Assembly: GCA_965261615.1 (NCBI GenBank)
Contig: OZ253461.1
Span: forward strand, 313,223-377,222
Direction of reading: 5' to 3'
DNA: 64,000 bases
Source: Alphaproteobacteria bacterium
GTDB taxonomy: Bacteria; Pseudomonadota; Alphaproteobacteria; Bin98
Made by a program: the position numbers and the translations under genes. Positions 34,121 through 58,315 of this stretch are shown here, in pieces (within the stretch, counting starts at the first letter, position 1; the number at the start of each line of letters is the position of its first letter). The notes beneath the pieces were generated by a model. The model was not told the DNA's origin and searched no databases. It was given only the letters and a program-made list of their open reading frames with translations.

Positions 34121-34146
34121 GATCTAAAAGGAAAATGCAGTTTAGT

Positions 34147-36702: not shown

Positions 36703-36739
36703 AGTTTGGTGTGTGTTGGGAGTAAGAAGAGGATTGGTT

Positions 36740-38957: not shown

Positions 38958-38981
38958 AAATTTAATTGATTGGAGTGGAAG

Positions 38982-41900
38982 ATGCAGATGTGTATGTTTA
39001 TTATTTTAAGTTTAAGTTGTTTGGCGCTTGATGTGCCTGAGGTGGGTTTGGGTGCTCTGCAAGATGCAATTAGCCAGAGTATGCCTCAGGGCACTACCCT
39101 TGAGCAATGTGTTGCAGACTACAAAAAAGATGGCTGGCAGTGTACGGCAGCTTTAGCGAGTGCAGCAGCGAACTTTTCTGGGGACAAAGAGGAGCTGTGG
39201 GAGACCAATAGGGATGTGCTTGGTTTTTTGTCGCACTGCCAGGGGGTTTATTTAAAAAAAGCACGCGTGCTGTTGCAAAAGTGTAAGCCACTGTCTTTCT
39301 GGATGCTCAACAGTAACATGCCTGTTATTAGCGCCATAAAGAGGGTGAAGGCAGTATGTGATAAGGTTATCTGCGTAAGCCGTTTTCCTCAGCATGACTG
39401 GTGGGGTGGCCAAGATGAGACCTCGATGGAAGCCTTCCATGCAGGGCTTCTTCAGCTAGACTCATGCCGTGTGGACGGCCAGTGGAGCGTAGAGGGCTTA
39501 GAGCTGCTGCCGAGCTGTAATATGGATGACATTTGGGAGGAGCTTTTGCTTGCAGTCAGCATGCGAGGGTCGTCAGGTGACTTTTATCAAATATCGGATA
39601 CTGTGACGTTCATGGAAAAGCGACATGTTAGTAGAGAGAGTATAGCCCTCTTCTGTTTGAGATATGCAGACATAGTTTGTCTTAGTGATCTGAGATCATT
39701 TGAACCAAGCAATCGTGAAGGGCACCAAGGCTCAACCTTTCGTAAATTTTATGATGGAGAGGACATAGCGTTTTTTATGCAAGATTTGTTTGCCTGCATG
39801 CAAGCACCGCATATAGGTGAGGAGAGGCCAAAAACAAACTATATTCTTCAGTACCTGCGCTTTTTATCCTGGGGAAATAAGGGTGATTTTTGGTGCAGCT
39901 TCCGATCTTTGCAAAAATGTGAAGAGCTTGAACCAAGTAACTCTATCGTATCTTCTTTTGTACAAGATGCTTGGGATTACCTTGTAGGAGGGGTGTTTGC
40001 AAACCCATCCTCTTACACTCAGAAGACGCACCTGAAGCGGTGCATACAAGCGCATAAAAAAGAGGAGTTCATGCCGAGTTCTACATTTGTGAAAGAACTC
40101 CAGAACCTTGATTTGACGCAAGAGGAAGAGTTTCTGCAAAAAGACAGGGAACTTTATGACTTTTTAAAAAGCTTCCAGGATCAAGTTTTTTCTAGAGCAG
40201 TGGCGTGTTTAGAAGCATTTGCACCACTATCTCATTGGGTACGAAAGGTGAACTTGCCTGTGTGCCGTGCTGTACTGTCTATGTATACCTGCGTGCGGGA
40301 GTGGCAACATCGCCTTGGAGAAGGCGCGGACCCTTGGAGCGACCAACCTCAAATGCAAACAGTGAAAACATTGAATGCCGCGCTTGTTCATCTGGGTTCA
40401 TATTATGCAAGTCATGCAAGTGATAAATGGGCTCATGTTACCCTAGATCTTATGCCGCCCTGCGATATCAGTGCTATTTGGGAGGAGATTTCGCTGCAAG
40501 CATGGAATGCTGGTCTGTCAGGGGACTTTGCGGCGGTAAAGGAAACAGTCTCGTTTATGGAACAGAAGGGTGTTAAAGCAAGCACTATAGCTCTTTTGTG
40601 TATGCGATACGCAGATCTAGTTCGCATTCATAATTTGCCAAAATTTGTCGTGAAATATACGGTGGGGGATTACCATACAACGTTTTATAAGTTTTATAAT
40701 GGAGAAAATATAGATTGTTTCATAGGGCGCTTGCTTGAAGCTGCAAAAGATAGGCGGGTCCATGATACCAAAGAGCTTGTTCTGAACTATATGCTGTTTT
40801 TACAATGGAAAGGTGGACTTAATTGGTGGAGTTTTTTTCGGGCTTTGCAAAAATGTGAAGAAAATTTGTCTTTTGAGGACGCAAATCATAAAAGAGTGCA
40901 GCATTGCTTGGCGCAGGTGTGGGGACAACTTGTGGGAACTTTGGATGAGGACCCCTCGGACCAGACTCCGGGTACTTTTATTAAAAGAGTTACTCGAAAA
41001 GGAGTTGCCTTTGAGTCCAGCCCTTTGCTCTTAAATGTGGCTGTAGACCTTCCCAAGGATGAGGTTGCGGGGCTTTTGCAAACAGAAGCGGAGCTTTGTA
41101 AGTTTTTAATGCGCTTTCAACAGCAGTTTTTGGATCAAGCAGAGCAGGCTCTAGAAGCATTTGCTCCAATTTCTAAGTTTATGTTAAGCTACGACAGCCC
41201 AGAGTGCCGTGCTGTAATATCCTTGTATCATAAGGTTTTGAAGCTATCTCCGCGTCAGGGCCTATCTTGGGATCGAGTTGCCACAAATGACGACTTGGAA
41301 AGCGTTGTGGGTGCGCTGCTTCAAGTAGAAAAGGTGGCTAATTCATCAGAGAAAGGTGCCTTTTACCTGCCGGGCAGTATGGAAGGGTGTGGTATGGACG
41401 GTATCTGGGAGGAGTTTTTAGACACTAGTCTTAGCGGAACATTGTGCGACTTTTCTGATTTAGTGTGCTTAATGGAAAGAAGGCGTGTGAGTGCGGCGAA
41501 AATAGCGCGTTATTGTCTTCGTCATGCTGTAAATATTGCTCAAAAGAGCAATCGAGGATTTTTGGCAAACGTCGGATATGTTTATCCGGATCGTTGGAGG
41601 AAAATGGACAAAAATGACACAGTGTATTGCTTTTTCTATGGTAAAAATATAGCTGAATTTATTCAGCTTCTGATCACAAGTCATGGTTCGGACACAGAAG
41701 AGACTAGACGTAATTTGTTGGATTATCAACAATATCTAACGTGGAAAGGTCAAGTTAATTGGTGGGAGTTTATCGATGGCTTGTTGTGTAATGGCTTTAG
41801 CTATAATGATAATCCAGAGGTCTTTGCTCCAGTATGTAGCCTGTTAAAAAGAGAAGGATCTACTTTAGAGAATGCTCTTGATCACCTTTGTTTCCTTGGA

Positions 41901-42662
41901 GGTTTGGAAGTTGATGGGCAGACTAAGCATGAAGCTATTGAGAGTTTGTTGATATGGCTGGGAGACTCTCATGAAGGAATTTCTGCTATATGGAAAAGGG
42001 GAGGCCGCGTGCGTAATGTGACAAAGCTGCACCTTGAGGCGCTGATAAGCCGTGTAGATACGTTAAGCGAATGTAAATCAGAAAGGTTCTATAACTGTGT
42101 TGTGCAGAGTGTGCCGTCAAGGGGGATGTTTCAGTCGCGCGTTGACACACGTGACTTGCCGGAAGGTCTTTATAAGCGGGTGATACAAGGAGAAGGTGCA
42201 ATAAGGTTTATTGCTGATATGCTGGATGCGGGGGGACAGAGCGGAGAAAGAGGTCGGTCTGAAAGAAATGCTCAGGCGTATTTAAAGTACTTGTCGCCAC
42301 AGCTGTCTGCGGAGGATCTTTTGGGGATGTTGGCTCAAGTGCCTGATCATGTAAACGATTGCTCCTTTGTATCTGGTTTGATTTGGATAGAGATTGCCCA
42401 AAAGAGGGGGGTTAAAGAGAGCAGTCTTCTGTCATATTTGCAATTTTTGATAGGGCACGCGTCGCTTGACTGGTCTTATGCGGAAAAAGAAATCCAACAG
42501 GTGTGTGGTTATTTGCGAGCGTTTGGGGACGCAAGGTTTACGTTATCCAATTTGGGGATAGGTGCAAATTACTTGAGTGCTGATCAGGTGAAAAGAGCTC
42601 AAGTAGCGGAACAAGAATTAGGTTCAAGTGCCCGTATCCTGGAAGGTTATGATGTCTTGTGA
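38982..42662 (+). CDS. Secreted family protein (about 1226 aa) with a three-fold internal repeat of the N-domain
   Basis: Consensus promoter TTGACA(38929–38934)-17-TACATT(38952–38957). Signal 'IILSLSCLALD'. Three successive copies of [WxCTAALA / DFLxxxQ / AFAP...P(V/E)CRAV...Y / GC.MDxIWEE / FYKFYxGExI / YLxFLxWKG..WW.F], then FYNCVVQSVP and the C-module. Confidence 0.9.
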   Translation: MQMCMFIILSLSCLALDVPEVGLGALQDAISQSMPQGTTLEQCVADYKKDGWQCTAALASAAANFSGDKEELWETNRDVLGFLSHCQGVYLKKARVLLQKCKPLSFWMLNSNMPVISAIKRVKAVCDKVICVSRFPQHDWWGGQDETSMEAFHAGLLQLDSCRVDGQWSVEGLELLPSCNMDDIWEELLLAVSMRGSSGDFYQISDTVTFMEKRHVSRESIALFCLRYADIVCLSDLRSFEPSNREGHQGSTFRKFYDGEDIAFFMQDLFACMQAPHIGEERPKTNYILQYLRFLSWGNKGDFWCSFRSLQKCEELEPSNSIVSSFVQDAWDYLVGGVFANPSSYTQKTHLKRCIQAHKKEEFMPSSTFVKELQNLDLTQEEEFLQKDRELYDFLKSFQDQVFSRAVACLEAFAPLSHWVRKVNLPVCRAVLSMYTCVREWQHRLGEGADPWSDQPQMQTVKTLNAALVHLGSYYASHASDKWAHVTLDLMPPCDISAIWEEISLQAWNAGLSGDFAAVKETVSFMEQKGVKASTIALLCMRYADLVRIHNLPKFVVKYTVGDYHTTFYKFYNGENIDCFIGRLLEAAKDRRVHDTKELVLNYMLFLQWKGGLNWWSFFRALQKCEENLSFEDANHKRVQHCLAQVWGQLVGTLDEDPSDQTPGTFIKRVTRKGVAFESSPLLLNVAVDLPKDEVAGLLQTEAELCKFLMRFQQQFLDQAEQALEAFAPISKFMLSYDSPECRAVISLYHKVLKLSPRQGLSWDRVATNDDLESVVGALLQVEKVANSSEKGAFYLPGSMEGCGMDGIWEEFLDTSLSGTLCDFSDLVCLMERRRVSAAKIARYCLRHAVNIAQKSNRGFLANVGYVYPDRWRKMDKNDTVYCFFYGKNIAEFIQLLITSHGSDTEETRRNLLDYQQYLTWKGQVNWWEFIDGLLCNGFSYNDNPEVFAPVCSLLKREGSTLENALDHLCFLGGLEVDGQTKHEAIESLLIWLGDSHEGISAIWKRGGRVRNVTKLHLEALISRVDTLSECKSERFYNCVVQSVPSRGMFQSRVDTRDLPEGLYKRVIQGEGAIRFIADMLDAGGQSGERGRSERNAQAYLKYLSPQLSAEDLLGMLAQVPDHVNDCSFVSGLIWIEIAQKRGVKESSLLSYLQFLIGHASLDWSYAEKEIQQVCGYLRAFGDARFTLSNLGIGANYLSADQVKRAQVAEQELGSSARILEGYDVL

Positions 42663-42881
42663 TTCGCGAGAAGTGACGCACATTATTGAAATAAGGGTGT
42701 ATGCCGGCTGAGCGAGTGCTCTTTTGAGTATATTAATTTTGCTAGTGGCGGTTGAATTAGTGCTGCTATTGTTTGCTGGCCTCTGCAGTCCACAGCAGAA
42801 CAACAAATGCGCATATTGTCATTGAGCCGATAGTGAGAAGAGGGTGTTTGGGTGTAGCGGGGAGGAGCAAACGATGACGCA

Positions 42882-42904
42882 GCCGTGCTTTTGCGAAGCA
42901 CGGC
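42882..42904. terminator. Conserved hairpin gccgtgctt-ttgcg-aagcacggc between convergent genes
   Basis: 9-bp perfect stem with a 5-nt loop, about 42 nt 3' of the minus-strand gene stop. An identical stem (loop ttgtg) sits at 48738–48760, in the equivalent position of the duplicated module. No U-tract follows on either strand. Confidence 0.35.
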
Positions 42905-42945
42905 GATGGTCATGGCTCAGGAAGGACTAGCTCTTCCTGAACTTC

Positions 42946-43935
42946 TTACGTGCTACGTGTCTCCAGTTTGGCTTCTACCTGTTTGATCATCTTAAATAGC
43001 TCTTGACTTTCGCCCGCATAGCCTTTCGGATGCGGTGTTGTGCTGTTGTGTGGTTTCAGGTCAATGAGAACATACTGAAGGGGTCTGTGGGCCGCTCTAG
43101 GTGGGCATGTTGGAATAGTGACATACACCATTTTGTCACCAGAATATAAGCGTTGTGCGGCTAGTTCTAAACTTGCTGGCTGCCATTCTCTAGGGAAGAA
43201 TAGGGGGGCGGCACCTTCGCATAACGCTTTGCTGCTTGAGGGTATGTCTTTGCACTCTTCTGCTTTCAATAGGAAGAGTGGGATATGTACTTCCATGAGA
43301 ATGCCCCATAGGTTTGTTTCCCATGAGACAGGTGGAAAGGAGAAATCGTTTAAAGAGGTTGGGTGTTGATCTTCTTTTGTGGCAGAGGGATTGGTGGTCT
43401 GTAGCATATGCGCTTCTTGCAAGCTCGCTTTTTGCGTATTTTGGTCGATAGTGGGTGGTGTTTCGCTACTCTGGGTTTCTGCAGTGGGCTCATGTTTTTG
43501 AATTTCCTGCATGAGCTCCTTCTCATTGGCTTCACTTTGATCTAGCATAGATTGCAGATGTTGCGCTATGGGGGGCCAGTATGTAGAGTGACGCTGTTGC
43601 TGAAGTACTTTGGAGAGTATGCGATTGTGCTGTTGCGTATTTTTTAAAAAATTTTCCACTTCTGCGACGCTCACGTTCGCCCCCTGTTCGTTCGTCCACG
43701 GTTCGTTCGCCCACTGTTCTTTCGCCCACGGTTGTGTAGCAGAGTCTGCGACGCTCACGTTCGCCCCCTGTTCGTTCGCCCACTGTTCTTTCGCCCACGG
43801 TTGTGTAGCAGAGTCTGCGACGCTCACGTTCGCCCCCTGTTCGTTCGCCCACGGTTCGTTCGCCCCCTGTTCGTTCGCCCACGGTTGTGTAGCAGAGAAA
43901 AGAGCTGATATAAATAAGATAAATAGTATAACCAT
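42946..43935 (-). CDS. Secreted protein (329 aa), family A of the minus-strand block, with an N-terminal pentapeptide-repeat region
   Basis: Signal peptide. The tract 'WANEQGANEPWANEQGANVSVADSATQP' is repeated. C-terminal half (CEGAAPLFFPREW...GDKMVYVTIP...TTPHPKGY) is about 60% identical to the 48784–49656 ORF. Confidence 0.8.
   Translation of the reverse strand: MVILFILFISALFSATQPWANEQGANEPWANEQGANVSVADSATQPWAKEQWANEQGANVSVADSATQPWAKEQWANEPWTNEQGANVSVAEVENFLKNTQQHNRILSKVLQQQRHSTYWPPIAQHLQSMLDQSEANEKELMQEIQKHEPTAETQSSETPPTIDQNTQKASLQEAHMLQTTNPSATKEDQHPTSLNDFSFPPVSWETNLWGILMEVHIPLFLLKAEECKDIPSSSKALCEGAAPLFFPREWQPASLELAAQRLYSGDKMVYVTIPTCPPRAAHRPLQYVLIDLKPHNSTTPHPKGYAGESQELFKMIKQVEAKLETRST
43650..43905 (-). 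repeat. Nested tandem repeat (15-bp subunits within 69–84-bp units, about 3 copies) encoding (W/G)ANE(Q/P) pentapeptide repeats
   Basis: Repeated 'gcgacgctcacgttcgccccctgttcgttcgcccac(t/g)gttc(t/g)ttcgcccacggttgtgtagcagagtct' units. The overlapping ORFs on both strands (GERTGGERTV..., CSFAHGSFAH...) are repeat artefacts. Confidence 0.85.
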
Positions 43936-43973
43936 AGAGGGATAGTAACCTATTTTTTCTGTATGTGCAACCG

Positions 43974-44843
43974 CTAAAGGGGTGTTTCCTCTACATGGAG
44001 GGGAGTGGCTGCTGTGTTGTGCGCATCTGGGCTAGAGATGGGTGCGGCCGGGTTGGATTGCGTCAGTAGGCTGGCCACGATTTCTTCTATATCTTGTTTT
44101 GCATCCTTAAATAATACTGCGGCTTTTTCATTGGGCATGTTTTCTTTTTTAGTTTTGGTGATCACAAAAAACAAAGGAGGATCCTGAGATCGGAAGCACG
44201 GAAAGCTTGACTGTAAGCGGATGATGGCCCATACATATTGGGCCCCTGATTCAGCTGTGTTTTTCGCCCGTTGCACACTGGCTAGTGGGCAGTCTGCTGA
44301 TATGCGTGAGTCAGCGGCGCTTTCAAAAATAGCTTTGCTTTTAGCGGGAGGTGATAAGTCCTCAGAGTCGTGATCTACAATATAAATTGGGAGCGCGATT
44401 TGTTGCACTGTGCCCCATCCATCTACCATTTTATAGTTAAGTGGAAAGCAGACGTTGTCAGGAAAAACTGGGAGAGGGAGTGGTTTTTTGTGATTGGCAT
44501 GTGCGTGTATGTGCTTGCGTAATCTTTTGTACATTTGGTCATCTTCGCCTAACTCTGGGTCTGGGAGTTTGAGAGAGGGTCGGGTTTGTTTGAGCGATGT
44601 GTGAAAAGTCTGTGTTCCCTGACGCACATCCTCTGTTGTTTTGCTAATTATGCCCTGAAGCTGAGGGTGTATTGCTGCCCAGTGCTTGGAGCTATGCTTT
44701 TGCTGTGCGCACCGACAAACTGCGCGCAAGAAGGTCGCTTTTTTTTGAAGCGCTGTGGCTTGCTCTTCTAATGATAGTTGGGACCATGGGGTGCTAGATA
44801 GCAGTGAGGTCGATACAAAAGATAAAATGATTATTTTCAACAT
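43974..44843 (-). CDS. Secreted protein (289 aa), family B of the minus-strand block
   Basis: Signal peptide. Distant paralog of the 49669–50574 ORF ('HSSKHWAAIHPQLQ' vs 'KDPHWPYATDALQ'; 'ALPIYIVDH' vs 'TIPLYIWEKG'). Confidence 0.7.
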   Translation of the reverse strand: MLKIIILSFVSTSLLSSTPWSQLSLEEQATALQKKATFLRAVCRCAQQKHSSKHWAAIHPQLQGIISKTTEDVRQGTQTFHTSLKQTRPSLKLPDPELGEDDQMYKRLRKHIHAHANHKKPLPLPVFPDNVCFPLNYKMVDGWGTVQQIALPIYIVDHDSEDLSPPAKSKAIFESAADSRISADCPLASVQRAKNTAESGAQYVWAIIRLQSSFPCFRSQDPPLFFVITKTKKENMPNEKAAVLFKDAKQDIEEIVASLLTQSNPAAPISSPDAHNTAATPLHVEETPL

Positions 44844-45006
44844 ATTTGATTATATAATATTTTTGTCGGAAATAAAGTTTTTGGTTTTAGTGTGTTCTTA
44901 AGCTTCGCGTGGCATATGCGAAGTATGGGCTATTTTGATATCGGTGAACGATGTTTTTACAAAAAGCTTGAGACCGTTTGCGCAGGACAAGGGCACGAAC
45001 CTGTCG

Positions 45007-47283
45007 CTATGCAGAAAGCGAGTGGGGACAAGGATTCTGTCGCTGAAATGTGGTGGTAGGCGTACAGCCGCACTGCAGTGTTGCCAAGCTATATGATTTG
45101 GTGCTGCATGGTATGTCAGAGCTTGTGCGGGTAAACTCACGTAAATTAACGCCCGCCCAACCTTCAAAAGCGCGTGTACTGCTTACGTTAAAGAATTGAC
45201 GAAAACAGCAGTATTGGGTGTGGTCCTCGGATAAAATAAAGGCGATAATTTTCAGAAATTCGAGATGCATTGAGCAGGTAGCTTCTGTTATCGAGGGAGC
45301 GCTAATGAGAAGGGTTTGGTGGAGCGCGTCATATGAAAAACTGCAAAAGGGGTACGGTGTATGGGATACGTAGACTGAGCATGTGTGCGGTGGTGCTGCG
45401 GGTACTGGAGCTACCCCTGTGCGATAGGTGATTTCGAAACGTGCATCGTTTTGATCCGGAGCTTGGGGAACAGAGCTGCTTGGATCAAATAAGTCTACGC
45501 GGGTGCGCGGCGTGTAGGGTGGTCTTTGCACATCAAGGCAGAGGGCTTGGACAAGGTGCTTTTGATTGTTGTTGAGCATAAATGCGTGGCGATTAAAGTG
45601 GGAGTTGAGAGGAGCTTTTTGGGAGTAAATGTTGGCATAGCAAAGAGCAGCATCTTTGTGGAAGGGAGCGGAGTTGTATTTAGCTTGGTAAAACTCCTTT
45701 TGTGAAGGGCATGAATCAGTGGCCTGCGTGACTTCCTGAGAGGTTTGTCCTAAAGATATAAAGCTGGCTTCTAAAGCACCGGCTTGCGAAGAGTGGAAAA
45801 GAACGCCAGCGCGCTCGATTTTATGTTTAAAGAGGATTGCTTGTACGGGTTGGTTGCGTTTAATGGTAGTGTTGGCTGCTTGTCGTGCCTGCTCTGGAAG
45901 GTTGTCAAAAACCTCTTTGCTGGTGTAAGTGTCTTCTTGTGTGTATGTGCGAAACTGCAAGTGTGGCTCTATGAAGTCTAGTAAATTTTGTGTGGTTTTG
46001 TCCAAATGCCAGGTGAATGCGGGGTTTTCTAGGAAAGCTTGTTCGGCGGTCTCTGCCATTATACTTTCCAAATCTGGGTCGGGGAAGTTAGTGTATAAGA
46101 AAATTTTTTGAAGAGCATCCTTTACAGAGCAACATAATGTGGGGATACCACGACATTCATGAAGATTGCTAAAAATAAACAGAACCTCAAGGAGGCGCTC
46201 GTAAAGGCGGGAGGTGTCATTTAATAGATTTTGCTGAATATAGTTGAGGGCGCCGTTGGCTATGACAGAGAGAACAGAGCTTTTTGATGGCTGGTTGTGT
46301 GTGAAAGCAAGGTCGAGAGTACTGCTGAAATTGTAGCGATTTTGCGCATGGTTTAAGTCATGTACGAATCTTCCGGATAAGCCCCATACTGTTGTTTCAT
46401 GTGCTGTAGCTGCATAGGCATCCTCGGAGATGATTTGAGGTAGGGAGGAAAGCTGTATGTTTTCTGAAAGGGCGATGGAGTCATCAATCATGGGAAAGAG
46501 GCCATCTTGAGAAAAAATATACTTAGTTTCCAGGGTTTGCGCTAACTCCATCGTGCAAAAAAGCCAGGCATTTTGCATATTGATGTCTGCCGGGGGATCT
46601 ATGCGATCTACGGAGCTTAACAGGATAGCGCGTATTGGGTCAGCACATTTTTCCAAGAGGTCTGTTAATTTTTTGCGGCTTCCACAAGCTTCTGGCAACT
46701 CTGATTTGCTATAGAGAATTCCTGGCTCTGACAGGGTGCGTAGATGCCGAGCTAGAGATTGCTTTGAGCTGATGTAAAGAACGGTGGGTGGGGCCGGTAA
46801 ATCTAACAATGATGAGAGCTCCTGTATGACTGCTGAGTTGTTCCAGGTGGCTAGTTGATGGAAATAGTCGTCGATGATTTTTAAAAGAAAGTATATTGTA
46901 AAGTTTGTGATGGCGATATTAGAGTGTAGGGCGTGCCGTGTTGCGCGGGAGAGGAATGCGTAATTGTCGTCGGGCTGTTCTTTGCTAAAAGAACGGATAA
47001 TGACATTAAGGTGCGTGCTAACTTGCCGCAGATTTAAAATGTAAGGGTTTCCCAAAAAGTGGGTAGACTTATGTGCGTCGATGGCCTTTTGCCCAATTGT
47101 GATAAGGCGTGATAAGGCTTCTTGAGGGGAGGAAAGGGAGTGTGGCAAGCTTTGGCGTTTTTTGGCAAACTCTTCTGGTGATGGTGTGCGATCTTGACCC
47201 CATATAATTTCTGAAACACTGCAATTTCCGGAGGTGCTGACCACAAGCGCGTAAACAGAAAATATAATAATAAATTTCAACAC
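45007..47283 (-). CDS. Large secreted protein (758 aa), unknown function
   Basis: Long ORF with N-terminal signal peptide MLKFIIIFSVYALVVSTSG. No recognisable motifs. Confidence 0.75.
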   Translation of the reverse strand: MLKFIIIFSVYALVVSTSGNCSVSEIIWGQDRTPSPEEFAKKRQSLPHSLSSPQEALSRLITIGQKAIDAHKSTHFLGNPYILNLRQVSTHLNVIIRSFSKEQPDDNYAFLSRATRHALHSNIAITNFTIYFLLKIIDDYFHQLATWNNSAVIQELSSLLDLPAPPTVLYISSKQSLARHLRTLSEPGILYSKSELPEACGSRKKLTDLLEKCADPIRAILLSSVDRIDPPADINMQNAWLFCTMELAQTLETKYIFSQDGLFPMIDDSIALSENIQLSSLPQIISEDAYAATAHETTVWGLSGRFVHDLNHAQNRYNFSSTLDLAFTHNQPSKSSVLSVIANGALNYIQQNLLNDTSRLYERLLEVLFIFSNLHECRGIPTLCCSVKDALQKIFLYTNFPDPDLESIMAETAEQAFLENPAFTWHLDKTTQNLLDFIEPHLQFRTYTQEDTYTSKEVFDNLPEQARQAANTTIKRNQPVQAILFKHKIERAGVLFHSSQAGALEASFISLGQTSQEVTQATDSCPSQKEFYQAKYNSAPFHKDAALCYANIYSQKAPLNSHFNRHAFMLNNNQKHLVQALCLDVQRPPYTPRTRVDLFDPSSSVPQAPDQNDARFEITYRTGVAPVPAAPPHTCSVYVSHTPYPFCSFSYDALHQTLLISAPSITEATCSMHLEFLKIIAFILSEDHTQYCCFRQFFNVSSTRAFEGWAGVNLREFTRTSSDIPCSTKSYSLATLQCGCTPTTTFQRQNPCPHSLSA

Positions 47284-47435
47284 ACCATCATTATACTATA
47301 GTGAGGTGTAAAATGCACGAAATATTTGACTAGCGCTAGGGGCAATATCTGAAGGGATGCAGCGTCTGAGAGCGCGGAGGTTCGGTAATGTGAAATCTTG
47401 CCAGCCAGTAATGAATATGGGATAATAAGGATAAT

Positions 47436-48362
47436 ATGAAATGGAGAAGCGTTGGCTGTTTTTTTGTGGTGTTGTCCCACATACTGTTTGCGAGTGATGA
47501 GGGTGTGAAGTTGGTTTCGCATAATTTGAGCATAATGACCTCGAAATCTGAGCAGGTGCACGAGGCGTCACAGTGCCACTTTGAGCTTTTATCACAAGGG
47601 CGGGATGTCCAGAGTGTGACGTTTATTTGTGATCGTTATGAGGTGACAGTAAAGGGCTCGCCTTATATTGATCAAGGTTTGTGTTCAAGTTTGGCTTATA
47701 ATGTAAGCTCATTAGTGCAATATTTTGCTGAAAATTGTAATGAATTAGGGGCGCAATCTACCTCTATTGGGCCACGAGCCATTTTACAATTAGCGGAAGT
47801 ATGCCAGAGTGCTGAGAAACAGTGGACGTTTATTGGGCCTAGACAAAGCGCAGTGCGCTTAGATATAGTAGACTGTGTTTTTTGTAAAGAGGTCTGTACG
47901 TGTCCGCCCGTCTGGGAGATACCGGCTTATAATTCCGTGTATGTTTCGGGAGATTTGACGTTTTTTAGAGAGCTGTTAAGCTCGGCTGTAAACCGCCTGC
48001 TTCAGCGGAATGAAAGCAATCACTTTGCGGGAAGTTGGGTGAGTTTTTTTTCAGCTATTTTAGCGTTGGATTACCCTGAAACAGTGAGTGTACGGGGTAT
48101 GTTTTTGAATGTTGCAAAGAGACGAAAATGTCCGTTTGTGGATGTTGGAGGTAGTTTTGAGCGCAAGAAAAGTTGGTTAGACCAAGTGTGTGCTTTAAAG
48201 CTTGCTGATGAAGATTGGAAGTGGATTAAGGAGTCTTTAGGTAGTGTGAAGCGCATGACTGCTGTATCCGCAGAAAAAGCGTGTATCAACGAGTTGCTTG
48301 CTGAGCTGCGACCGGAAAATCGTTTAGGTTTTGGGTTGTGTCGTTGTGAAAATTGGTTGTAA
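47436..48362 (+). CDS. Secreted Cys-rich protein (308 aa), unknown function
   Basis: Signal MKWRSVGCFFVVLSHILFAS. Multiple cysteines including a CxxxC pair. Transcribed divergently from the 45007–47283 gene. Confidence 0.7.
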   Translation: MKWRSVGCFFVVLSHILFASDEGVKLVSHNLSIMTSKSEQVHEASQCHFELLSQGRDVQSVTFICDRYEVTVKGSPYIDQGLCSSLAYNVSSLVQYFAENCNELGAQSTSIGPRAILQLAEVCQSAEKQWTFIGPRQSAVRLDIVDCVFCKEVCTCPPVWEIPAYNSVYVSGDLTFFRELLSSAVNRLLQRNESNHFAGSWVSFFSAILALDYPETVSVRGMFLNVAKRRKCPFVDVGGSFERKKSWLDQVCALKLADEDWKWIKESLGSVKRMTAVSAEKACINELLAELRPENRLGFGLCRCENWL

Positions 48363-48737
48363 CGTAGATCTTGAGCCTTTTTGAGATGAAGGTTTGTATT
48401 GCGTCTGAGAGCGCTTGCGCCTGGCTGTAAAAATCAAGTCAATGTTCTATTTCTTTTGGGGTTTGGGAAAATCACTTAATAAACATAGAACGATGCATAA
48501 GCTTTGCTATGGTCAAAACATAGATTCTTTTATTGTGTAGTTAATCGAAATCAGCGGGATTTTATGGGAAGAGCTGTAGTAGAAGTAACCCGATATTTTG
48601 AGTGTTTAAGCTGTAGAAGGCAAGTGAATTGGTGGGGATTTGTGCTGGGTGGAGCATAACGAAAAGGATAGGGATTTGCTCTGTAAGGTGAATGTAGAGC
48701 TAGGGAGGCAAAAAGCTGCTGGTGTTAGTGTGACGCA

Positions 48738-48760
48738 GCCGTGCTTTTGTGAAGCACGGC
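48738..48760. terminator. Second copy of the conserved hairpin, 3' of the 48784–49656 gene
   Basis: Same stem; about 50 bp of conserved flanking sequence (gtgacgcagccgtgcttttgYgaagcacggcg-atggtc). Confidence 0.35.
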
Positions 48761-48783
48761 GTATGGTCGTCGCTCAGGTGGGG

Positions 48784-49656
48784 TTATACCTCAGTTCCCT
48801 CATCGTTGAATTCTCTGGGTGTCTCCGCAGGGGTCTCTTCGATTTGCTCTAGGGTTTCTAGGAGCTGTTGACGTACCCCTTTATAGCGTTCAGGATGCGG
48901 CGTGGTGCCGTTAGGGTCTAGGTCAATGCATACAAAACTCAGGGGGAGATCAGCGCCACTGTATATAAGACTTAGGGGGATATTAATGATACTTGGCGGG
49001 AGCAACGGGATGGTGACATATACAATTTTATCACCAGTATATAAACGTTCTTTAGCCAATCCTAAGCTTGCTGGCGTCCATTCTTTAGGGAACCATAGGG
49101 GTGCTGCTCCTTCACACACAGCCTTGCTGTTCGGGATTTTGTCGAAATCTGATTTTTCCAAAAGAAACAGTGGGACACGTAACTCTACGGGCATGTTAAG
49201 GTTGTTTGTGTCCCATGAAAGGCGTGGAATGCAGAGGCTGTCTTTAAATGTTCGTCTGTGCTTTTTCGCGCCGTCCGCGTGCTTTTTCAATGGTTTGCGC
49301 AGATGCTGTGCTATTTTGCCGTTTTTAAAGAGCTCTGCTTGTGAAGTGTGGTGAGTAATGGGGGAAGTGTCGCGGCAATCGTGCTCTTTAGTCGCTTCCA
49401 ATGCTGCTTCAAATGCAGCAGCACACTCTTTCAGCTCTTCTTCCCCTTTGGATAGAAAGCATTGAAGATGTTTTCTTATTGGGTGCCAGTGTGTAGAGTG
49501 TCGATTTTGACTAACTGCTATGGAGAGTGCGCGTATGATTCGTGGCGTTGTTTCTAAATTTTCTGCCATCTCCTCCAGAGTCCAGTCACTCCAATTTTGT
49601 GTGGATGAGAATAGGGGTGGTATAAATAACAGTAATAATATTAACATTAAAGACAC
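48784..49656 (-). CDS. Secreted protein (290 aa), family A paralog
   Basis: Signal peptide. 'RHSTHWHPIRKHLQ' and 'CEGAAPLWFPKEW...GDKIVYVTIP...TTPHPERY' match the 42946–43935 ORF. Confidence 0.8.
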   Translation of the reverse strand: MSLMLILLLLFIPPLFSSTQNWSDWTLEEMAENLETTPRIIRALSIAVSQNRHSTHWHPIRKHLQCFLSKGEEELKECAAAFEAALEATKEHDCRDTSPITHHTSQAELFKNGKIAQHLRKPLKKHADGAKKHRRTFKDSLCIPRLSWDTNNLNMPVELRVPLFLLEKSDFDKIPNSKAVCEGAAPLWFPKEWTPASLGLAKERLYTGDKIVYVTIPLLPPSIINIPLSLIYSGADLPLSFVCIDLDPNGTTPHPERYKGVRQQLLETLEQIEETPAETPREFNDEGTEV

Positions 49657-49668
49657 TCTAGCATGAGT

Positions 49669-50574
49669 TTACCGTGAGATCAAGGGCCCTCCTTCTAATG
49701 GGAGAGGGAGCGAAGTGCATATTTGGGCATATTCCTCGAGGGCTTCTTGAAAAATCACGCAGAATGTATGATCCTTTGGGATCTGTTTGGAGGTTTTTGT
49801 TTCTAGGCGTGTGTAGCTTAAGGGTTTGCCTGTGTCTGTTGGGATGTGTATGAGCACGCAGTGAGCCCCTTGGTCAGCTGTGGCTTTAAGACGAGCTCTT
49901 GTGATGAAATAAGGAGGAGAGCTGGAGGTTATGGGCAGTGAGTCGGAGTGGACACAAGGTGAGCTTTGTTTGTTTTGCGCAATGGTGGAGCCTTTTTCCC
50001 AAATATATAGGGGAATGGTATGCTGTTTTATGTTTGATCCAAATCCGTGGGAGATATCACGGCAGGCGGCTAAAGTGCAGAGATCTTCTGGCCAAAGAGG
50101 GAGCAAAATGTTTTGAGGCTGGCCTGTATTGTGTGTTTTGACTAACCTTATAAACTGTTTGCTAACTTTCCCGTTTTTGATGAATGATTCAGTCGGGAAA
50201 GATTGGGCCATCTTGAGGATGTCTTCCGAGGCGGCATGGGTTGTTTTTGCTTGAAAAATAGGGGCTAACTTCTCAAATGATCGCTGGTGCTGACTCAGGA
50301 GTGTTTGAAGAGCGTCTGTTGCATATGGCCAATGTGGGTCTTTACGTTCTTGAGCAATTAATTTCGGGTATGTGTGGATGGCATCTATGAGGCGAGATAG
50401 CGTGTAGGCTTGTTGTTCAAGCGTCATACGGTGACAGTGTGCTACAAAAACGTCTTCAATTTTAGTCTGAGTCTCGAGAGCGTGAGGGTGCATTGCTGCA
50501 TCTGAGTTGTCGTGGCGGGCTTGAGCGGCCATAAGGGCTGTGGCATATAGCGATAACAATGTGAGTGCAAACAT
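49669..50574 (-). CDS. Secreted protein (301 aa), family B paralog
   Basis: Signal peptide. Same order and orientation relative to its family A neighbour as the 43974–44843 ORF. Confidence 0.7.
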   Translation of the reverse strand: MFALTLLSLYATALMAAQARHDNSDAAMHPHALETQTKIEDVFVAHCHRMTLEQQAYTLSRLIDAIHTYPKLIAQERKDPHWPYATDALQTLLSQHQRSFEKLAPIFQAKTTHAASEDILKMAQSFPTESFIKNGKVSKQFIRLVKTHNTGQPQNILLPLWPEDLCTLAACRDISHGFGSNIKQHTIPLYIWEKGSTIAQNKQSSPCVHSDSLPITSSSPPYFITRARLKATADQGAHCVLIHIPTDTGKPLSYTRLETKTSKQIPKDHTFCVIFQEALEEYAQICTSLPLPLEGGPLISR

Positions 50575-50699
50575 GCATCAGGTTACTGCGGAATGTGAGG
50601 ATTGTCAATAGCAGGGTGGCTGAAGAATGTTGATAACTGCGTATGAGATTTGACTGCGGTTATTGCTGCATTTTGTTAAGGTAATGAGCAGAGCTGTAT

Positions 50700-51104
50700 T
50701 TGTTGCATTTAGAAAACCTCTGGGCTAAAATGCTTTATATACAAGTGTCACATATGCACAAGGGTCAGGAGGTTGTGGCCAGGTGTATTTGGCCTGAAAT
50801 ACAAAAAAAGCGCTTAAATAATGTGGAACCATTGCTGCAGTATTTGAAGTTTTTAATATTACAAGAGGGATTATCCGATTCGTATGCAAAGAGCGAGATC
50901 GATGAGGTGTCTAAATATTTGTATGCGCTTAGAGGGCAAAGGGCAGCAGAAAGCTTTTTGCGTGGGCATTGTGCCGGCTGTAGCAAAGAAAGTCAGCGAT
51001 CTTTACGCAATTATGCCAGCGCTGCGCTTCAGAAAGGGTATGGGGATCGTTTTTTGACAGAGACGCCTTTGCCAAGCTGTTTGAGTTTGGACGATGTTTG
51101 TTAA
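50700..51104 (+). pseudogene. 3' fragment (C-module only) of an 855-type family gene
   Basis: 'QEVVARCIWPEIQKKRLNNVEPLLQYLKFLILQEGLSDSYAKSEIDEVSKYLYALRGQRAAESFLRGHCAGCS' matches the last roughly 110 aa of the 24899 and 34147 genes. No signal peptide or N-domain. Homology starts about 50757, directly abutting the minus-strand block. Confidence 0.7.
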
Positions 51105-51134
51105 AAAAGCGGGGTTTTGACAATTTGGAGAGAG

Positions 51135-52886
51135 ATGGTGCTGTATTTAATCACATTAAGTTTAGCTGTTGTTGCGGCAAATCTAGTCGACATCCGTGCT
51201 GAGTGGGAGCTCTTACACGAGTCGATTCGCCAAAGTATGCCAAGTGGCACAACCTTGGTTAGGTGTGTAGAGGAATACAGAGAGCAAAGATGGTGGTGCA
51301 CGCCTAAGCTGGCGATAGCAGCCGCAGGGATGTCTGAGGCTGCAATTGCAGACAATAGGCTGTGCTATGATTTTGTAAGACACTGTCAGGCAATATATAT
51401 TAGCCGAGCAAAGATGTCTTTATCAATATTTGAGCCTGTGGCAGAATTTATCTTAAAGAGCAAACAGCCAGTGTGTAGTGCCATAAGTGGCGTGTACTGG
51501 AGGGTGCGGCAGTTAAGCGAATATCATATGGGAAGTTCGTTGCCTTGGAAGAATCGGCCTAAGATGAGAGAGCTGCGGGACTTGGTTGATGGAATGCGTA
51601 AGTTGGAGGCTGCAAAGGCGCAAGATAATGAAAGGTTTCATTTTGGAGGTTTGATTGCGGGCTGTAATGTGGATAAAATTTGGGAGGAGTTCATAGAGGT
51701 GCGGGGGCCCACTCGAGGCTGGAAAGGTTGTTTTTCAGATTTTTGTGAATTGGCGGCCTTAATGGAAAAAGTAAATGCTGATCAGAGCTGTGTGGTGAAT
51801 TTTTATCTTGAACATGTTGATTCAATTGTGCGAGAGAACATGAGACGCTTTGGGGAGGAAAGGGTGGTGGCCTTTGAGAAAAAAAGTACCGCATATAGTT
51901 TTTTCTATGGCCAAAATGTAGATGATGTGATTTGTTTGCTTGTGGCAGGTGAGCGTGTTTTGACTGAAGAGTGTAAGGGACGTTTGTATCGGTATCTGAG
52001 ATATTTAGACTGGAGGGGCCAAGTGAATTGGTGGGACTTTAAGTTGGGGCTGCTGCGTAGTGGTTTGGGTGACAGCAAAGAGGCCGGTGAAATGTTTTGT
52101 TGGATCAAATCTAAGCTTATGGAAGAGGGGGGTGATTTAGCCAAAGCTCTTCAGCATATGGGAAAACTAGAGAATTTGGGTGAGCAAAACATCAAGCGTG
52201 ACACCATTGATGATCTGCTTGAGTGGCTGCACCAAGGGAGAGAGGGGGCCTCTTCTTTATGGAAAGGTGGAGGTCGCGTGAGAAATGTGAAAAAGCATAT
52301 GATTCATGCAATGGTCCAAGGTTTAGAGAGGTTATCCTCAAACAAAACCGAAGGTTTTTATAACTTCGTGGTGCAGAGTTTGCCCAGAAGAGGTGTCTTG
52401 TGGCGACATGAGGTGACGCATGACTTGGGGGAGGGGCTGTACAAAAATGTGATAGAGGGGCGCAACGCCCTGCAATTTATGGCGGAGATATTGAATTCGG
52501 GCGAGAGAAGCGGGTGCCTAGAAGCGCGCGCAAGATCTGTAAGAAATGCTGGCTCATATTTAAAATACTTGTCGCCCCAGCTGTCTATGGCGGATTTGTT
52601 TTGCATGTTGGCGCAAGTGCCTGATCAGGCAGGTGGCAGCTTTGTTGTTGTGGATCTGGTTTGGAGTGCCATTAACGCCAGGGCGGGACGTTGTGAGAAT
52701 AGTGCGCTGTGGTATTTAGATTTTGTGCTGTCGAATGCAGAGCTCGATCAGGTGTATCTGCAGAAGGAGGTTCAAGCAGTGCGTGATTACTTGCGAGCGT
52801 GTGGGTGTGATGTCGTGGCGCTTTGTGCCCGTGGTGTAGATTTAGACGCTATGCCGTTGGGCAAAATAGTGAGTGCGCCACAATAG
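51135..52886 (+). CDS. Secreted family protein (about 583 aa), 609-type
   Basis: RBS GGAGAGAG. Signal MVLYLITLSLAVVAAN. 'WWCTPKLAIAAAGM...YDFVRHCQA...FEPV...PVCSAI', 'YLDWRGQVNWWDFKLGLLRSG', 'FYNFVVQSLP' and C-module. Confidence 0.9.
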   Translation: MVLYLITLSLAVVAANLVDIRAEWELLHESIRQSMPSGTTLVRCVEEYREQRWWCTPKLAIAAAGMSEAAIADNRLCYDFVRHCQAIYISRAKMSLSIFEPVAEFILKSKQPVCSAISGVYWRVRQLSEYHMGSSLPWKNRPKMRELRDLVDGMRKLEAAKAQDNERFHFGGLIAGCNVDKIWEEFIEVRGPTRGWKGCFSDFCELAALMEKVNADQSCVVNFYLEHVDSIVRENMRRFGEERVVAFEKKSTAYSFFYGQNVDDVICLLVAGERVLTEECKGRLYRYLRYLDWRGQVNWWDFKLGLLRSGLGDSKEAGEMFCWIKSKLMEEGGDLAKALQHMGKLENLGEQNIKRDTIDDLLEWLHQGREGASSLWKGGGRVRNVKKHMIHAMVQGLERLSSNKTEGFYNFVVQSLPRRGVLWRHEVTHDLGEGLYKNVIEGRNALQFMAEILNSGERSGCLEARARSVRNAGSYLKYLSPQLSMADLFCMLAQVPDQAGGSFVVVDLVWSAINARAGRCENSALWYLDFVLSNAELDQVYLQKEVQAVRDYLRACGCDVVALCARGVDLDAMPLGKIVSAPQ

Positions 52887-53025
52887 TGATGAATTTTTTT
52901 TTGAATGGGAAATCTAATGTCTGTTTGTGTTGAGTTTGTCAAAGTATTGCGATACAATGTATGGCGCTGGTTTGCACATTGATGAGAATGATGAAGGTGC
53001 GGCCTCTAGCTGGCAGGTGGATGAA

Positions 53026-55146
53026 ATGAGATTTATTTTAGTGATTTTAGGTTTAAGCTGTGTTGCAGCAGAAATGAGCGATGATCCAAGAGTTGAGCTA
53101 AGCGTTGAGGCTGACTCTGCGAAACATTGTGTAAATATAGATATAATGCAGTGCGTAAGCGCGTATGCGATTTTGCGCAATAGTTTGTGGGACGAGCAGG
53201 TGAAGGAGTCTCTCGATTGTGACTTTGCTCATCTGACAACGGAATCTGCGCTGGCTGACGCTAAATCTGCTGACGCTAAATCTGCTGATACTGAATCTGA
53301 CGTTGAAGTGGTGTGGCATCAGCGGGTCGCTATCCAGGAAATAGATGACTTTCTAAGAACAGCAGAGAGTAAAGTTGGCAAGAGGAGCATGGGTTTTTTT
53401 GGTGTGGCTGTGAGTCTGTTGCCATTTGTAGGCTCTGGTAATGTGGTGGACTTGCGGGAGGATTCGCTCTATAGGAAGTTGGTAGTGGGAGAGGATGTGC
53501 TCTCGCGTTTTGATGAAATTATTAACTCATCCGGAGGGGTGAAGATTACACTGGAAGCTGAGAGGGTTTCTGAAGCCTATGCGCGTTATTTGTCAACGAA
53601 TTTTGGGGAGGAGTATTTGTTTGAAAAGTTAGAGTTAATCCCAGATATGGAGCTTATTGGTATGCCGACAAGAGGGGCCATAAACTCTTTCATTTGGGGT
53701 GCGCTAATTGCAAAGGGCGTTCAAAGTGTGCGTTCTTTGCTTTCATATTTAAAATGTGTGTTGCTGCGCCCTTCTTTTGTGTGGAATCCTTCAGACAAAG
53801 AAATAGATCGAATTTGTGAATGCTTAATTCGCCTCGGTAAAAAAAAGGTGGGACGCGATTTTTTAGAGTTTGGGCAAGATGTTATGGCGACACCGTCGGT
53901 TGCATCACGGGGATTTTGGCAATATGCACAAAATCGCTTACAACCCTCTTTGTGGGATTGTGTGGTTGATGGGCTGCCAGGGCATGGATATTTAAAAGGG
54001 CCTGCGAAACAAGATCCGGACGAGGAAACAGCTTATGCTTACTTATGGTCAGTTGAGGAGCCCAGTGTGGGTGAGGTAGGTGGTGACGCCGCTATAGTCA
54101 GTACGCCGATACGAGACGACAACTTGGTTTTGTGTGATGTTATTCAGATGAATATGGCGTACAATGCTTTGATGCAAAAATGCTCTGAACACGTTGACAG
54201 CACAAAGTTTGTCTTTCTTAAGAAGGCATTGTATATTGATGAAGATATTTTGGTTAATGCGCCAGGAGTATGTTTTAAAAAAATGAGTGCAATCAAGATT
54301 GATGAATTTATTATGCTTCTTTCTGATCGGTTCCCGGAGCGGCCGGCAGCTTTTTGGAATTTTGTAGTGCGATGTCTCCCAGGTGGTGACGCTCCTTTTC
54401 AAACAGACTGGTGCCATCGATTGCCTTCGGGATCTTTGTTGAAAGAGCTAGTAGACGGAAACAATGTACTTTCTTTAGTCCACACAATGCTTTTGGCTGG
54501 TAAAAAAGAAACCAAAGGAACTGCGAAAGAGCAATCAGCGGCAATGTATTTAAAGTATTTATCTCCTCGGTTTCCCGAACAGTGTTGGTTCCGGCTTCTA
54601 GAGCGAGACCTTGATGTGAAAGCGCGTGATGTAACGCCACACCTCCTTTGGGATGTGTTGAAGGCAAAAGGTGTTTCCGATGTGAGCTGCTTACTGTCGT
54701 ACTTAAAGCATGTTATACTTCACCCAACGCTAGACGCAGTAGAGTCAAAGAATGAGATCCTACAAACTCTTGGGTGCTTATATTCTTTAGGTAAAAAAGC
54801 AGTAGCCCGAGAGTTTTTAGGAGTGGGGGTTACATACTTTGAGCGGCTTGTTGAAAACAACCCCTCCATGTTTGAAAAAGATGCGTCTATCGTTGAAAAT
54901 GACAAACCCGAATTTGACGATCTGTTTAGCCTTGGAGCAGGTTCACTCGACTTTGAAGAAGATTCATTGCCAGCGCCTCCTAGTCTTGCAAATCGGCTAC
55001 TTAAGGGTGTATCTTTAAAACGTCTTATAAATGATCGATTTGCTGTAGCGTTCAAAAGTGTGGCGCCTTCTCCGTGGGATTTAGTTCAAAGAGTTTTGTC
55101 TCCTGAAGTAGAGGATTATGGATATTTGTGGGGTTTGAAGTGTTGA
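53026..55146 (+). CDS. Secreted family protein (about 706 aa), double-C-module subfamily
   Basis: -10 TACAAT (52953–52958). RBS AGGTGGA (53014–53020). Signal MRFILVILGLSCVAAE. Two 'FxxFVVRCLP ... LSYLK(C/H)V(L/I)L ... (D/E)FL' units. Confidence 0.85.
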   Translation: MRFILVILGLSCVAAEMSDDPRVELSVEADSAKHCVNIDIMQCVSAYAILRNSLWDEQVKESLDCDFAHLTTESALADAKSADAKSADTESDVEVVWHQRVAIQEIDDFLRTAESKVGKRSMGFFGVAVSLLPFVGSGNVVDLREDSLYRKLVVGEDVLSRFDEIINSSGGVKITLEAERVSEAYARYLSTNFGEEYLFEKLELIPDMELIGMPTRGAINSFIWGALIAKGVQSVRSLLSYLKCVLLRPSFVWNPSDKEIDRICECLIRLGKKKVGRDFLEFGQDVMATPSVASRGFWQYAQNRLQPSLWDCVVDGLPGHGYLKGPAKQDPDEETAYAYLWSVEEPSVGEVGGDAAIVSTPIRDDNLVLCDVIQMNMAYNALMQKCSEHVDSTKFVFLKKALYIDEDILVNAPGVCFKKMSAIKIDEFIMLLSDRFPERPAAFWNFVVRCLPGGDAPFQTDWCHRLPSGSLLKELVDGNNVLSLVHTMLLAGKKETKGTAKEQSAAMYLKYLSPRFPEQCWFRLLERDLDVKARDVTPHLLWDVLKAKGVSDVSCLLSYLKHVILHPTLDAVESKNEILQTLGCLYSLGKKAVAREFLGVGVTYFERLVENNPSMFEKDASIVENDKPEFDDLFSLGAGSLDFEEDSLPAPPSLANRLLKGVSLKRLINDRFAVAFKSVAPSPWDLVQRVLSPEVEDYGYLWGLKC

Positions 55147-55239
55147 GAAAACAATGGCAAGAGTTGTGGTGAGGTTTGGATGCTGTTAATGACGCCTTTT
55201 AGAGGGTGTGGTATGACGTTTCATGTTTAAGAGGTTTTT

Positions 55240-57153: not shown

Positions 57154-57243
57154 TTGCGCTCATAAAATCGCTTTGAATTAATGCTTTTGTTGGCCACTTG
57201 TGAATTTGAAGCAATGTGGTATAATATGTTCTAAGGGGTGCTA

Positions 57244-58125
57244 ATGCTTTACATTCTAATTATTTGCGGATTAAGCTGTTGGGCTTCTAATGTAGAAGAA
57301 ACTCTGCCGAATGACGCTGCATTTTCAAGGATAAAATCGGCAATTGAGAGGAGCCGCTCTCCGTATGAGACTTTAGAGTACGCCGTAAGTCGGTATATGA
57401 TGGGGGGATGGGAATGTCCATTATTGCTGGCAATAGATGCAGCGGATGTGTCTGAAAAAACGTTGCAGTCTCCGGCATCAAGGCTGCGTGTTTTTGTACG
57501 GCACTGCCAGGGTGCGTTTTTGGCAAAGGCCAGGGCTTCTTTAGGGGTTTTTCAACCTGTGGCAAAACCTATACAAAATATCAACACGCCGGCCTGCAAT
57601 GCTGTGAAAGCAGTTTATCAAAAAGTGCAGCAGTTAAGCCTCCTTCCTGAATTTCGTAAAGAGGCGGCGAAAACTTGGTCGCGCCTAAGTGATATTCGAA
57701 AAACGAGCAAGTTGATTGCAGCGTTAGGTAAGGTGGACAGGGCTGCTCATGAAAACGTAAAAGCCTTTACATTTCCAGGGGAAGTGTCAGGATGTAGCAT
57801 GGATGACGTTTGGGCAGATATTGTAATGCTGGGGGCGTGGCCAACACCCACTCTAGATGAGTTTATTGCAATAGTGAACTTCCTCGAAGGGAGGGGCACG
57901 GACCCTCAACGTCTAGCTAAGTACTGTGTAGATTTAGCCGGCAATTTTTGTGATGACAAAAAGATAGGCAGTGTGTTGGAAAAGATCAGTAAAGGCTCTG
58001 TGGCTTATAAATTTCTCTCAGGAAAGGGCGTGGACCATTTTTCTGGACTATTGCATAATGTACATGGGAAGAGGCATGCGCAAAAGCAAGTGATGGGGGC
58101 ACTGGAAGAAACAACCCCACTTTAA
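57244..58125 (+). CDS. Short family protein (about 294 aa) comprising only the signal peptide and N-domain
   Basis: Extended -10 TGgTATAAT (57217–57225). RBS AAGGGGTG. Signal 'IICGLSCWASN'. 'WECPLLLAIDAADV ... FVRHCQG ... FQPV ... PACNAV ... VYQKV ... FPGEVSGCSMDDVW'. No NWW, FVVQ or C-modules. Confidence 0.8.
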   Translation: MLYILIICGLSCWASNVEETLPNDAAFSRIKSAIERSRSPYETLEYAVSRYMMGGWECPLLLAIDAADVSEKTLQSPASRLRVFVRHCQGAFLAKARASLGVFQPVAKPIQNINTPACNAVKAVYQKVQQLSLLPEFRKEAAKTWSRLSDIRKTSKLIAALGKVDRAAHENVKAFTFPGEVSGCSMDDVWADIVMLGAWPTPTLDEFIAIVNFLEGRGTDPQRLAKYCVDLAGNFCDDKKIGSVLEKISKGSVAYKFLSGKGVDHFSGLLHNVHGKRHAQKQVMGALEETTPL

Positions 58126-58315
58126 TGTTTTGGTGGTGTGGGAGTGTATCCTAAGGGAGCTATATGGTAGACTCTGCTCTCTTTGCGTGGTAAAATCCAT
58201 AAAGTAAGTTTGATGATGAGATGGCTGTTAGCCCTTAATATTGAGTCTGAAGTTGTGAGTGTTGAGGATCCAGCGGGCAAGCCTTTTGCGGTGACTGTGG
58301 ATCATTTGGTTCTGT

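Follow-up and report, generated by a model that had tools for sequence, protein, structure and literature searches.

Lineage-specific gene families arranged as tandem arrays have been described in Candidatus Ichthyocystis, in which 28-29% of coding sequences (CDSs) belong to such families, termed IchFam (PMC4943182). The arrays show occasional strand switches and unrelated families side by side, their adjacent paralogs are attributed to tandem duplication followed by diversification and have no outside homologs, and a virulence role has been deduced from the family expansion itself (PMC4943182). This appears to be the nearest described situation to the locus analysed here, an 8-kb block of mostly opposite-strand genes (hereafter the island) that interrupts an array of paralogs in 64,000 nt of DNA from an Alphaproteobacteria bacterium of GTDB lineage Bin98 (assembly GCA_965261615.1, contig OZ253461.1, positions 313,223 to 377,222). 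We refer to this whole 64-kb stretch as the window and give all positions in its coordinates. Open reading frames (ORFs) of ≥150 aa on the + strand occupy 7-42662 and 51117-62958 and, by all-against-all BLAST, form one diverse paralog family of ~25 members. At 42.9-50.6 kb this array is broken by the genes A1-B1-X (−), Y (+) and A2-B2 (−). A C-terminal fragment of the array family, 134 codons long, comes next. The strand flip and gene order proposed in an earlier, sequence-only reading of this DNA are borne out by the ORF map.

Like Ca. Ichthyocystis, the genome has expanded families made up entirely of orphans, namely the ~25-member array and an A/B family of at least 10 members. It differs in GC content (45% here versus 35-38% there) and in size (a 1.47-Mb contig versus 2.3-2.6 Mb drafts), in that its families lack sequence similarity to database proteins outside their own lineage, and in the apparent footprint, visible here, of one family displacing part of the other family's gene. 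The locus also resembles genomic and pathogenicity islands, being a compact block of unrelated secreted-protein genes that breaks up a colinear region and is bordered by a damaged gene; unlike them, it shows no compositional shift, tRNA, integrase or direct repeat, its paralogs are found only in the same genome, and it contains a remnant of the array.

We read the island, with a probability of about 0.6 for this evolutionary anatomy and much lower confidence in any function, as a long-resident mosaic of a lineage-private secreted family nested in the array, and not as one inserted unit. Local duplication and illegitimate recombination would have produced it, with an ancestral A gene duplicated along with its 3′ stem-loop and the A2-B2 pair taking the place of ~580 bp of an 855-type array gene. 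The mid-section and C-terminal part of that gene would survive on the two sides of the pair, the former as a decayed remnant and the latter as an open fragment of 134 codons, and its 5′ 1.5 kb would have been replaced by Y and the X/Y promoter region. A1, A2, B1 and B2 are four of at least 10 genomic paralogs, and X and Y are two orphan secreted proteins. If this reading is true, two private secreted-protein families of a small genome are growing into each other and have left a datable footprint, the middle of an array gene having given way to a gene pair of the other family; the locus would then be a useful example of effector-like repertoires being renewed through local duplication and illegitimate recombination and not through horizontal transfer. 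The island is nevertheless an ordinary kind of object, a nested cluster of a second private secreted family that bears a birth-and-death footprint and is made of uncharacterised proteins; the general phenomenon is already well documented and no long-standing question is opened.

Pieces of an 855-type array gene on either side of A2-B2

The sequence-only reading had the island disrupt a family gene and leave a C-terminal 855-type fragment at its right edge. We recovered this fragment (50700..51104, +), whose frame is open to the natural stop and whose homology begins at ~50721-50745. It matches the C-terminus of the 855/857-aa array genes with 53-57% identity over 93-109 aa (50721-51071 corresponding to aa 745-853), matches positions 576-680 of the family hidden Markov model (HMM) at 50721-51038, and is closest to the subfamily of the 855-, 857- and 789-aa genes (aa 749-841, at 50.75-51.07 kb). 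A second piece of the family, found by both tblastn and the family HMM, lies inside the island at ~48397-48668 (+). This remnant, corresponding to about aa 469-565 of the 855-aa gene, is decayed, with a frameshift and several stops: it matches positions 333-395 of the 705 in the family HMM at 48463-48650, and its translation carries the family motif (YGQNID...VNWWGF) spread over two frames and cut by stops ('...LCYGQNIDSFIV' then '...RRQVNWWGFVLGG'). After frame correction, its best matches are again the 855-, 857- and 789-aa genes, at aa 505-555 (48.46-48.65 kb).

Both pieces lie on the + strand, are colinear, and derive from the same 855-type subfamily. The 194 codons absent between them coincide with a 2.07-kb block consisting of the A2 stem-loop, A2 (48784..49656, −; 290 aa), B2 (49669..50574, −; 301 aa) and the region upstream of B2. 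The shared strand, order and subfamily, together with a gap that falls at A2-B2, argue that this pair, and not the whole island, lies inside one broken 855-type gene. Disruption of a family gene thus stands as proposed but is confined to A2-B2, as the left edge of the island adjoins an intact 1230-aa family gene (38970..42662, +; three N-modules plus a C-module) that is complete to the family C-terminus. On the right, the fragment is followed by an intact 589-aa array gene (51117..52886, +).

Alternatively, the remnant (48.4-48.67 kb) and the fragment (50.7-51.1 kb) could record two separate birth-and-death events of the array, unrelated to the arrival of A2-B2. Other broken array members do occur in the window (22567-24701, 17360-18307 and 57238-58125), and the contrast in decay is sharp, the remnant being full of stops and the fragment an open frame. 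We nonetheless consider two independent events rather unlikely, given that the pieces sit in order on one strand, belong to one subfamily, and lack between them exactly the 194 codons at which the A2-B2 block lies.

No trace of the first ~500 codons of the broken gene was found where Y and the X/Y intergenic region now lie. Y itself (47436..48362, +) is a Cys-rich (4.9%) orphan of 308 aa. We considered whether Y might be the missing N-terminal portion of that gene and rejected this reading: neither hhalign (against nine family members and seven subfamily alignments), nor phmmer (against every ORF), nor an iterated HMM of the N-module, built from 30 modules, found similarity beyond the signal peptide. 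Y is treated here as a separate gene. More generally, A1, A2, B1, B2, X and Y all scored E > 0.1 against the whole-family and N-module HMMs, and hhalign aligned only their signal peptides with the array family. Exact copies of a 14-nt direct repeat, GCGTCTGAGAGCGC, lie either side of Y (47362..47375 and 48401-48414, +), bracketing it together with its promoter-like site. The repeat has only these two copies in the window even when 2 mismatches are permitted, and similarity ends at 14 nt; it may be due to chance or may be a recombination footprint.

A and B as one lineage-private family

The two A genes, A1 (42946..43935, −; 329 aa) and A2, had been described as about 60% identical. They are indeed paralogs (BLASTP E 1e-51), with an overall identity of 39% (BLAST) to 44% (MAFFT); identity reaches 58% only over A2 residues 141-222, the C-terminal domain. 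B1 (43974..44843, −; 289 aa) and B2, the most divergent A/B member in the island, are more distant paralogs, as the same reading held (21% identity, E 5e-8). A and B are in addition homologous to each other (E 1e-11 to 1e-16 for A2 versus B1, and about 1e-6 for both A1 versus B1 and A2 versus B2). This homology suggests that what had been called a two-gene module is a tandem pair drawn from a single family.

We built an A/B HMMER profile from the four island proteins and ran it against 1.84 billion representative proteins. It returned ten sequences only, all from this lineage: A1, A2, B2, a B1 ortholog, and six others (P0007-P0012). Exact look-up placed nine of these on the same 1,465,401-bp contig and the tenth, the B1 ortholog, on a metagenome contig, L002. 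The family thus has at least 10 members in this lineage, four of which sit in the island as two adjacent pairs, and it appears, from this search, to be private to the lineage. One member of the same genome that lies outside the window, P0007 (948 aa), has three tandem A/B domains joined by Q/P-rich repeated 'STKINESAPQPQPDSSSIEQECADQKIS' linkers; the first and second of these domains are almost the same in sequence.

In a neighbour-joining tree of 13 A/B domains, A1 and A2 paired in 200 of 200 bootstraps, B1 and B2 in 24, and the four island members grouped together in 109. With this difference in bootstrap support between the two pairs, duplication of A together with its 3′ stem-loop appears firmly supported, and duplication of a whole B-A unit is possible. 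The proposal of an anciently duplicated two-gene module accordingly survives for A; the sisterhood of B1 and B2 is not supported, and A and B belong to one family. 'Ancient', as applied to the split between A1 and A2, is a relative term because these proteins evolve quickly.

X-B1-A1 in a metagenome relative

L002 is a 1,990-bp contig of an ENA metagenome assembly (analysis ERZ23496358, sample SAMN12291685) on which the end of X, a complete B1 and the beginning of A1 follow one another as they do in the island, with 84-86% nucleotide identity. At the protein level, identity is 85% for the C-terminus of X (127 aa), 76.5% for B1 and 74% for the N-terminal part of A1. Synonymous divergence (dS) is ~0.2, and the ratio of nonsynonymous to synonymous divergence (dN/dS) is 0.32 for X, 0.53 for B1 and 0.83 for the A1 N-terminal part, values consistent with fast evolution of all three genes. 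The sequence-only reading had called for a comparison of synteny with related genomes. The order X-B1-A1 is kept in this relative, at ~85% nucleotide identity over the part that the contig covers, and its conservation indicates that at least the left half of the island is older than the split from the L002 lineage.

The N-terminal region of A1 contains a tandem repeat (43674..43886, −; 69-bp unit, 2.6 copies) that encodes three ~23-aa units rich in W/A/N/E/Q, with a 15-bp sub-period corresponding to (W/G)ANE(Q/P). As this repeat is absent from the ortholog in L002 (positions 1430-1990 of that contig), it appears to be a recent, strain-specific expansion. X (45007..47283, −) is an orphan of 758 aa; when we searched protein databases with it, only X itself was found.

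Composition and edges of the island

We next considered whether the island might be foreign DNA or a flipped piece of the array, both of which had been raised before. Its GC content (0.44-0.49) is the same as that of its flanks (0.43-0.48). The + strand has a very strong excess of G over C in every 1-kb bin of 1-64000, the island included (GC skew +0.1 to +0.36); at third codon positions this excess amounts to about +0.4, and it does not depend on which way the genes point. The five minus-strand island genes therefore lie on the C-rich strand, and genes newly flipped from the + strand would show a skew of about -0.4. Measured on the + strand at third positions, the skew is instead +0.48 for X, +0.48 for Y, +0.41 for B2, +0.26 for B1, +0.17 for A2 and -0.01 for A1, compared with +0.34 to +0.46 for the array genes. 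The skew of the minus-strand genes thus follows the local replication strand, which excludes a recent inversion; X and B2 appear to have come to full equilibrium in the orientation they now have.

We found no tRNA, and no island protein matched an integrase, transposase, recombinase, phage or defence family in Pfam, NCBIfam, PHROG or PADLOC. No direct or inverted repeats are present at the edges, where flanking direct repeats had been suggested: the longest word common to 42.6-43.0 and 50.5-50.8 kb is 9 nt. Two-copy short repeats (D13 and D20) connecting 44.9-45.1 kb and 51.07-51.11 kb lack colinearity and were put down to chance.

Insertion of the entire 8-kb block into an array gene, as a genomic island gained by horizontal transfer, would account for a set of genes unrelated to the array and on the opposite strand, and for the truncated family gene at its right edge. 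It is very unlikely, however, in view of a GC content and replication-strand skew like those of the flanks, the lack of tRNA, integrase, transposase and edge repeats, the intact gene at the left edge and the family remnant within the block. A foreign origin is unlikely also because X-B1-A1 is kept in the relative and because six more A/B paralogs lie elsewhere in the same genome, with none in another organism. Still less credible is that the block is an inverted piece of the array. The strand flip within an otherwise one-directional array is what such an event would produce; against it, the island proteins match the array family neither by HMM nor in profile comparisons, the edges carry no inverted repeats, X and B2 have the skew of + strand genes, opposite to the prediction for recent inversion, and the family remnants within the block remain on the + strand. 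Neither insertion nor inversion, as first proposed, is thus upheld.

Several observations weigh against the reading of a long-resident mosaic that we prefer. The skews of A1 (-0.01) and A2 (+0.17) are weaker than those of X and B2, which could reflect different constraints or a different history. The L002 contig spans only 1,990 bp and reaches no flank of the island. The remnant is heavily decayed, yet the fragment has stayed open for 134 codons, which is unexpected under a single inactivation event. Y could be the N-terminal part of the broken gene, diverged beyond recognition. With respect to function, the role of A/B is wholly inferred, with no homolog, domain or fold match in the databases searched, and only the 1.47-Mb size of the contig points to host association.

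A conserved stem-loop 3′ of both A genes

The sequence-only reading noted that the same hairpin follows both A copies, and we confirmed this: the hairpin CCGTGCTTTTGYGAAGCACGG occurs exactly twice in the window, once 3′ of each A gene, with 0 copies expected. It lies within a 48-nt block (42873..42920 for A1, with the stem-loop at 42882-42904; 48729..48776 for A2, with the stem-loop at 48738-48760; both −) that is 92-97% identical between the two A copies, compared with ≤75% for the best-conserved coding stretches. The hairpin folds into a stable 9-bp G+C-rich stem with a 5-nt loop, 25-43 nt past each A stop codon. In its composition and its position just past the A genes it resembles an intrinsic (Rho-independent) terminator; it differs from one in that no U tract follows the stem on either strand, and a terminator scan did not select it. 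An Rfam scan of the window, hairpin included, returned no match, and a JGI metagenome scan with the hairpin pattern returned one contig, a chance 23-nt match. That the block is so much better conserved than the coding DNA points to a further role, for example in RNA stability or protein binding, or else to recent gene conversion. At the end of each A gene, this U-less stem-loop would end or stabilise the transcript.

Putative secretion signals, predicted structure and possible function

Each of the six island proteins (A1, B1, X, Y, A2 and B2) has an N-terminal hydrophobic signal-like segment and no other transmembrane-like segment. The hydrophobic core of this segment reaches a Kyte-Doolittle 11-residue window maximum of 1.9-3.3 and is followed by small residues in every member; the 134-codon fragment ORF has no signal-like segment. 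The earlier description of the six genes as encoding signal-peptide proteins is thus compatible with their sequences in all six cases. From these short N-terminal signals, and with no other membrane segments, the proteins would be exported via Sec. For the array proteins, we considered a lipoprotein reading of the 'LSLSC' motif in the signal peptide and rejected it, as positions -3 and -2 are, by eye, unlike a lipobox.

Searches for similarity gave consistently negative results. No island protein matched Pfam, NCBIfam, PHROG or PADLOC, which places all six outside housekeeping families and favours the idea, also raised at the outset, of an independent secreted-protein cluster. None of the solved structures in the PDB matched the A/B profile, X, Y or the array family at the sequence level. 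When A2, X and the 589-aa array gene were run through word-indexed protein searches, each query retrieved nothing but itself, an A1/A2 alignment scan of genome contigs gave as its sole match a spurious Flavobacterium, and a JGI metagenome scan with an alignment of the X C-terminus found nothing.

We modelled A2 with AlphaFold2 using an 11-sequence alignment (pLDDT 76.3, pTM 0.74), replacing a run with four sequences (pLDDT 58). In the model, the signal segment leads into two helices that pair as a hairpin (27-49 and 57-93); after a further helix (117-127) comes a small alpha/beta domain, whose strands 156-166 and 210-217 bear the family motifs IPL(Y/F)(I/L)L and GAxFIYAxIP. A/B proteins are thus predicted to consist of a long helical hairpin and a small alpha/beta domain. 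Foldseek found no match to the A2 model in the PDB (best E 3.4) or among the viral proteins of BFVD (best E 0.93). With 10 members, a confident model and no such match, A/B is a candidate for structural and functional study.

We suggest that A/B is a second lineage-specific secreted family beside the array, with a probable role in host or surface interaction. The island proteins would then work extracellularly, as rapidly evolving factors of the cell surface or of host interaction, which is also the role proposed for expanded tandem families of other host-dependent bacteria with small genomes.

Transcription and translation signals

The minus-strand genes form two leftward strings, X-B1-A1 (with gaps of 163 and 38 nt) and B2-A2 (12-21 nt), each of which ends at the conserved stem-loop. 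X-B1-A1 may thus be one leftward transcription unit and B2-A2 another. Y is divergent from X and is preceded by a sigma-70-like site, TTGCCA-17-GATAAT (47398..47426, +; 10/12 matches, TG-extended), that ends 9 nt before its ATG.

Translation-initiation signals differ between the array and the island. A GAGG/GGAG sequence lies 8-12 nt upstream of the presumed start in 15 of 23 array genes (two genes have AGGA at 18 nt), compared with none of the five minus-strand island genes. Instead, a perfect TATAAT precedes the start codons of B1 and X by 11-12 nt. The lack of a Shine-Dalgarno (SD) sequence and the presence of -10-like boxes so close to the starts suggest leaderless or SD-independent initiation of the island genes.

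These signals also bear on whether the island is functionally linked to the array, for example by encoding partners of the array proteins (chaperones, processing factors, inhibitors or receptors) kept within the array for co-regulation. Co-location, common secretion signals and the retention of X-B1-A1 in the relative are compatible with such a link. It is doubtful all the same: no signature of an enzyme, transporter or chaperone was detected in the island proteins, all six further A/B paralogs of the genome lie outside the 64-kb window, and, where most array genes have GAGG/GGAG, the minus-strand island genes have none. A more speculative idea, to which we give little weight, is that A/B represents a previously unseen secreted-effector fold that cooperates with the array proteins, e.g. 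as cognate partners or modulators; the opposite strand and the SD-less, possibly leaderless starts would in that case, on equally slender odds, provide separate regulation and faster evolution.

Annotation and other members of the array

The deposited annotation of the contig includes Y (308 aa) and B1 (289 aa) as CDSs and also calls the 134-codon fragment a CDS, with a TTG start. It starts X and B2 13-14 codons downstream of the starts used here, cutting off their signal-like N-termini, and starts A2 at the ATG at 49647 (287 aa).

The array family is modular, with 1-3 copies of an N-module of ~290 aa followed by a C-module, which itself matches the second half of the N-module HMM in several genes (E 1e-13 to 1e-24). 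Three members outside the island depart from this layout. The member at 22567-24701 is damaged, split by a frameshift into 156 aa and 556 aa as compared with paralogs of 720 aa; that at 17360-18307 (315 aa) is shortened by an internal deletion that fuses the start of an N-module to the end of the C-module; and that at 57238-58125 (295 aa) consists of an N-module only. Finally, a two-gene unit of the array has undergone recent segmental duplication (24887-29633 versus 34135-38842): its 857/855-aa genes are 89% identical and its 720/709-aa genes 69% identical, and the 45-nt upstream regions are identical.

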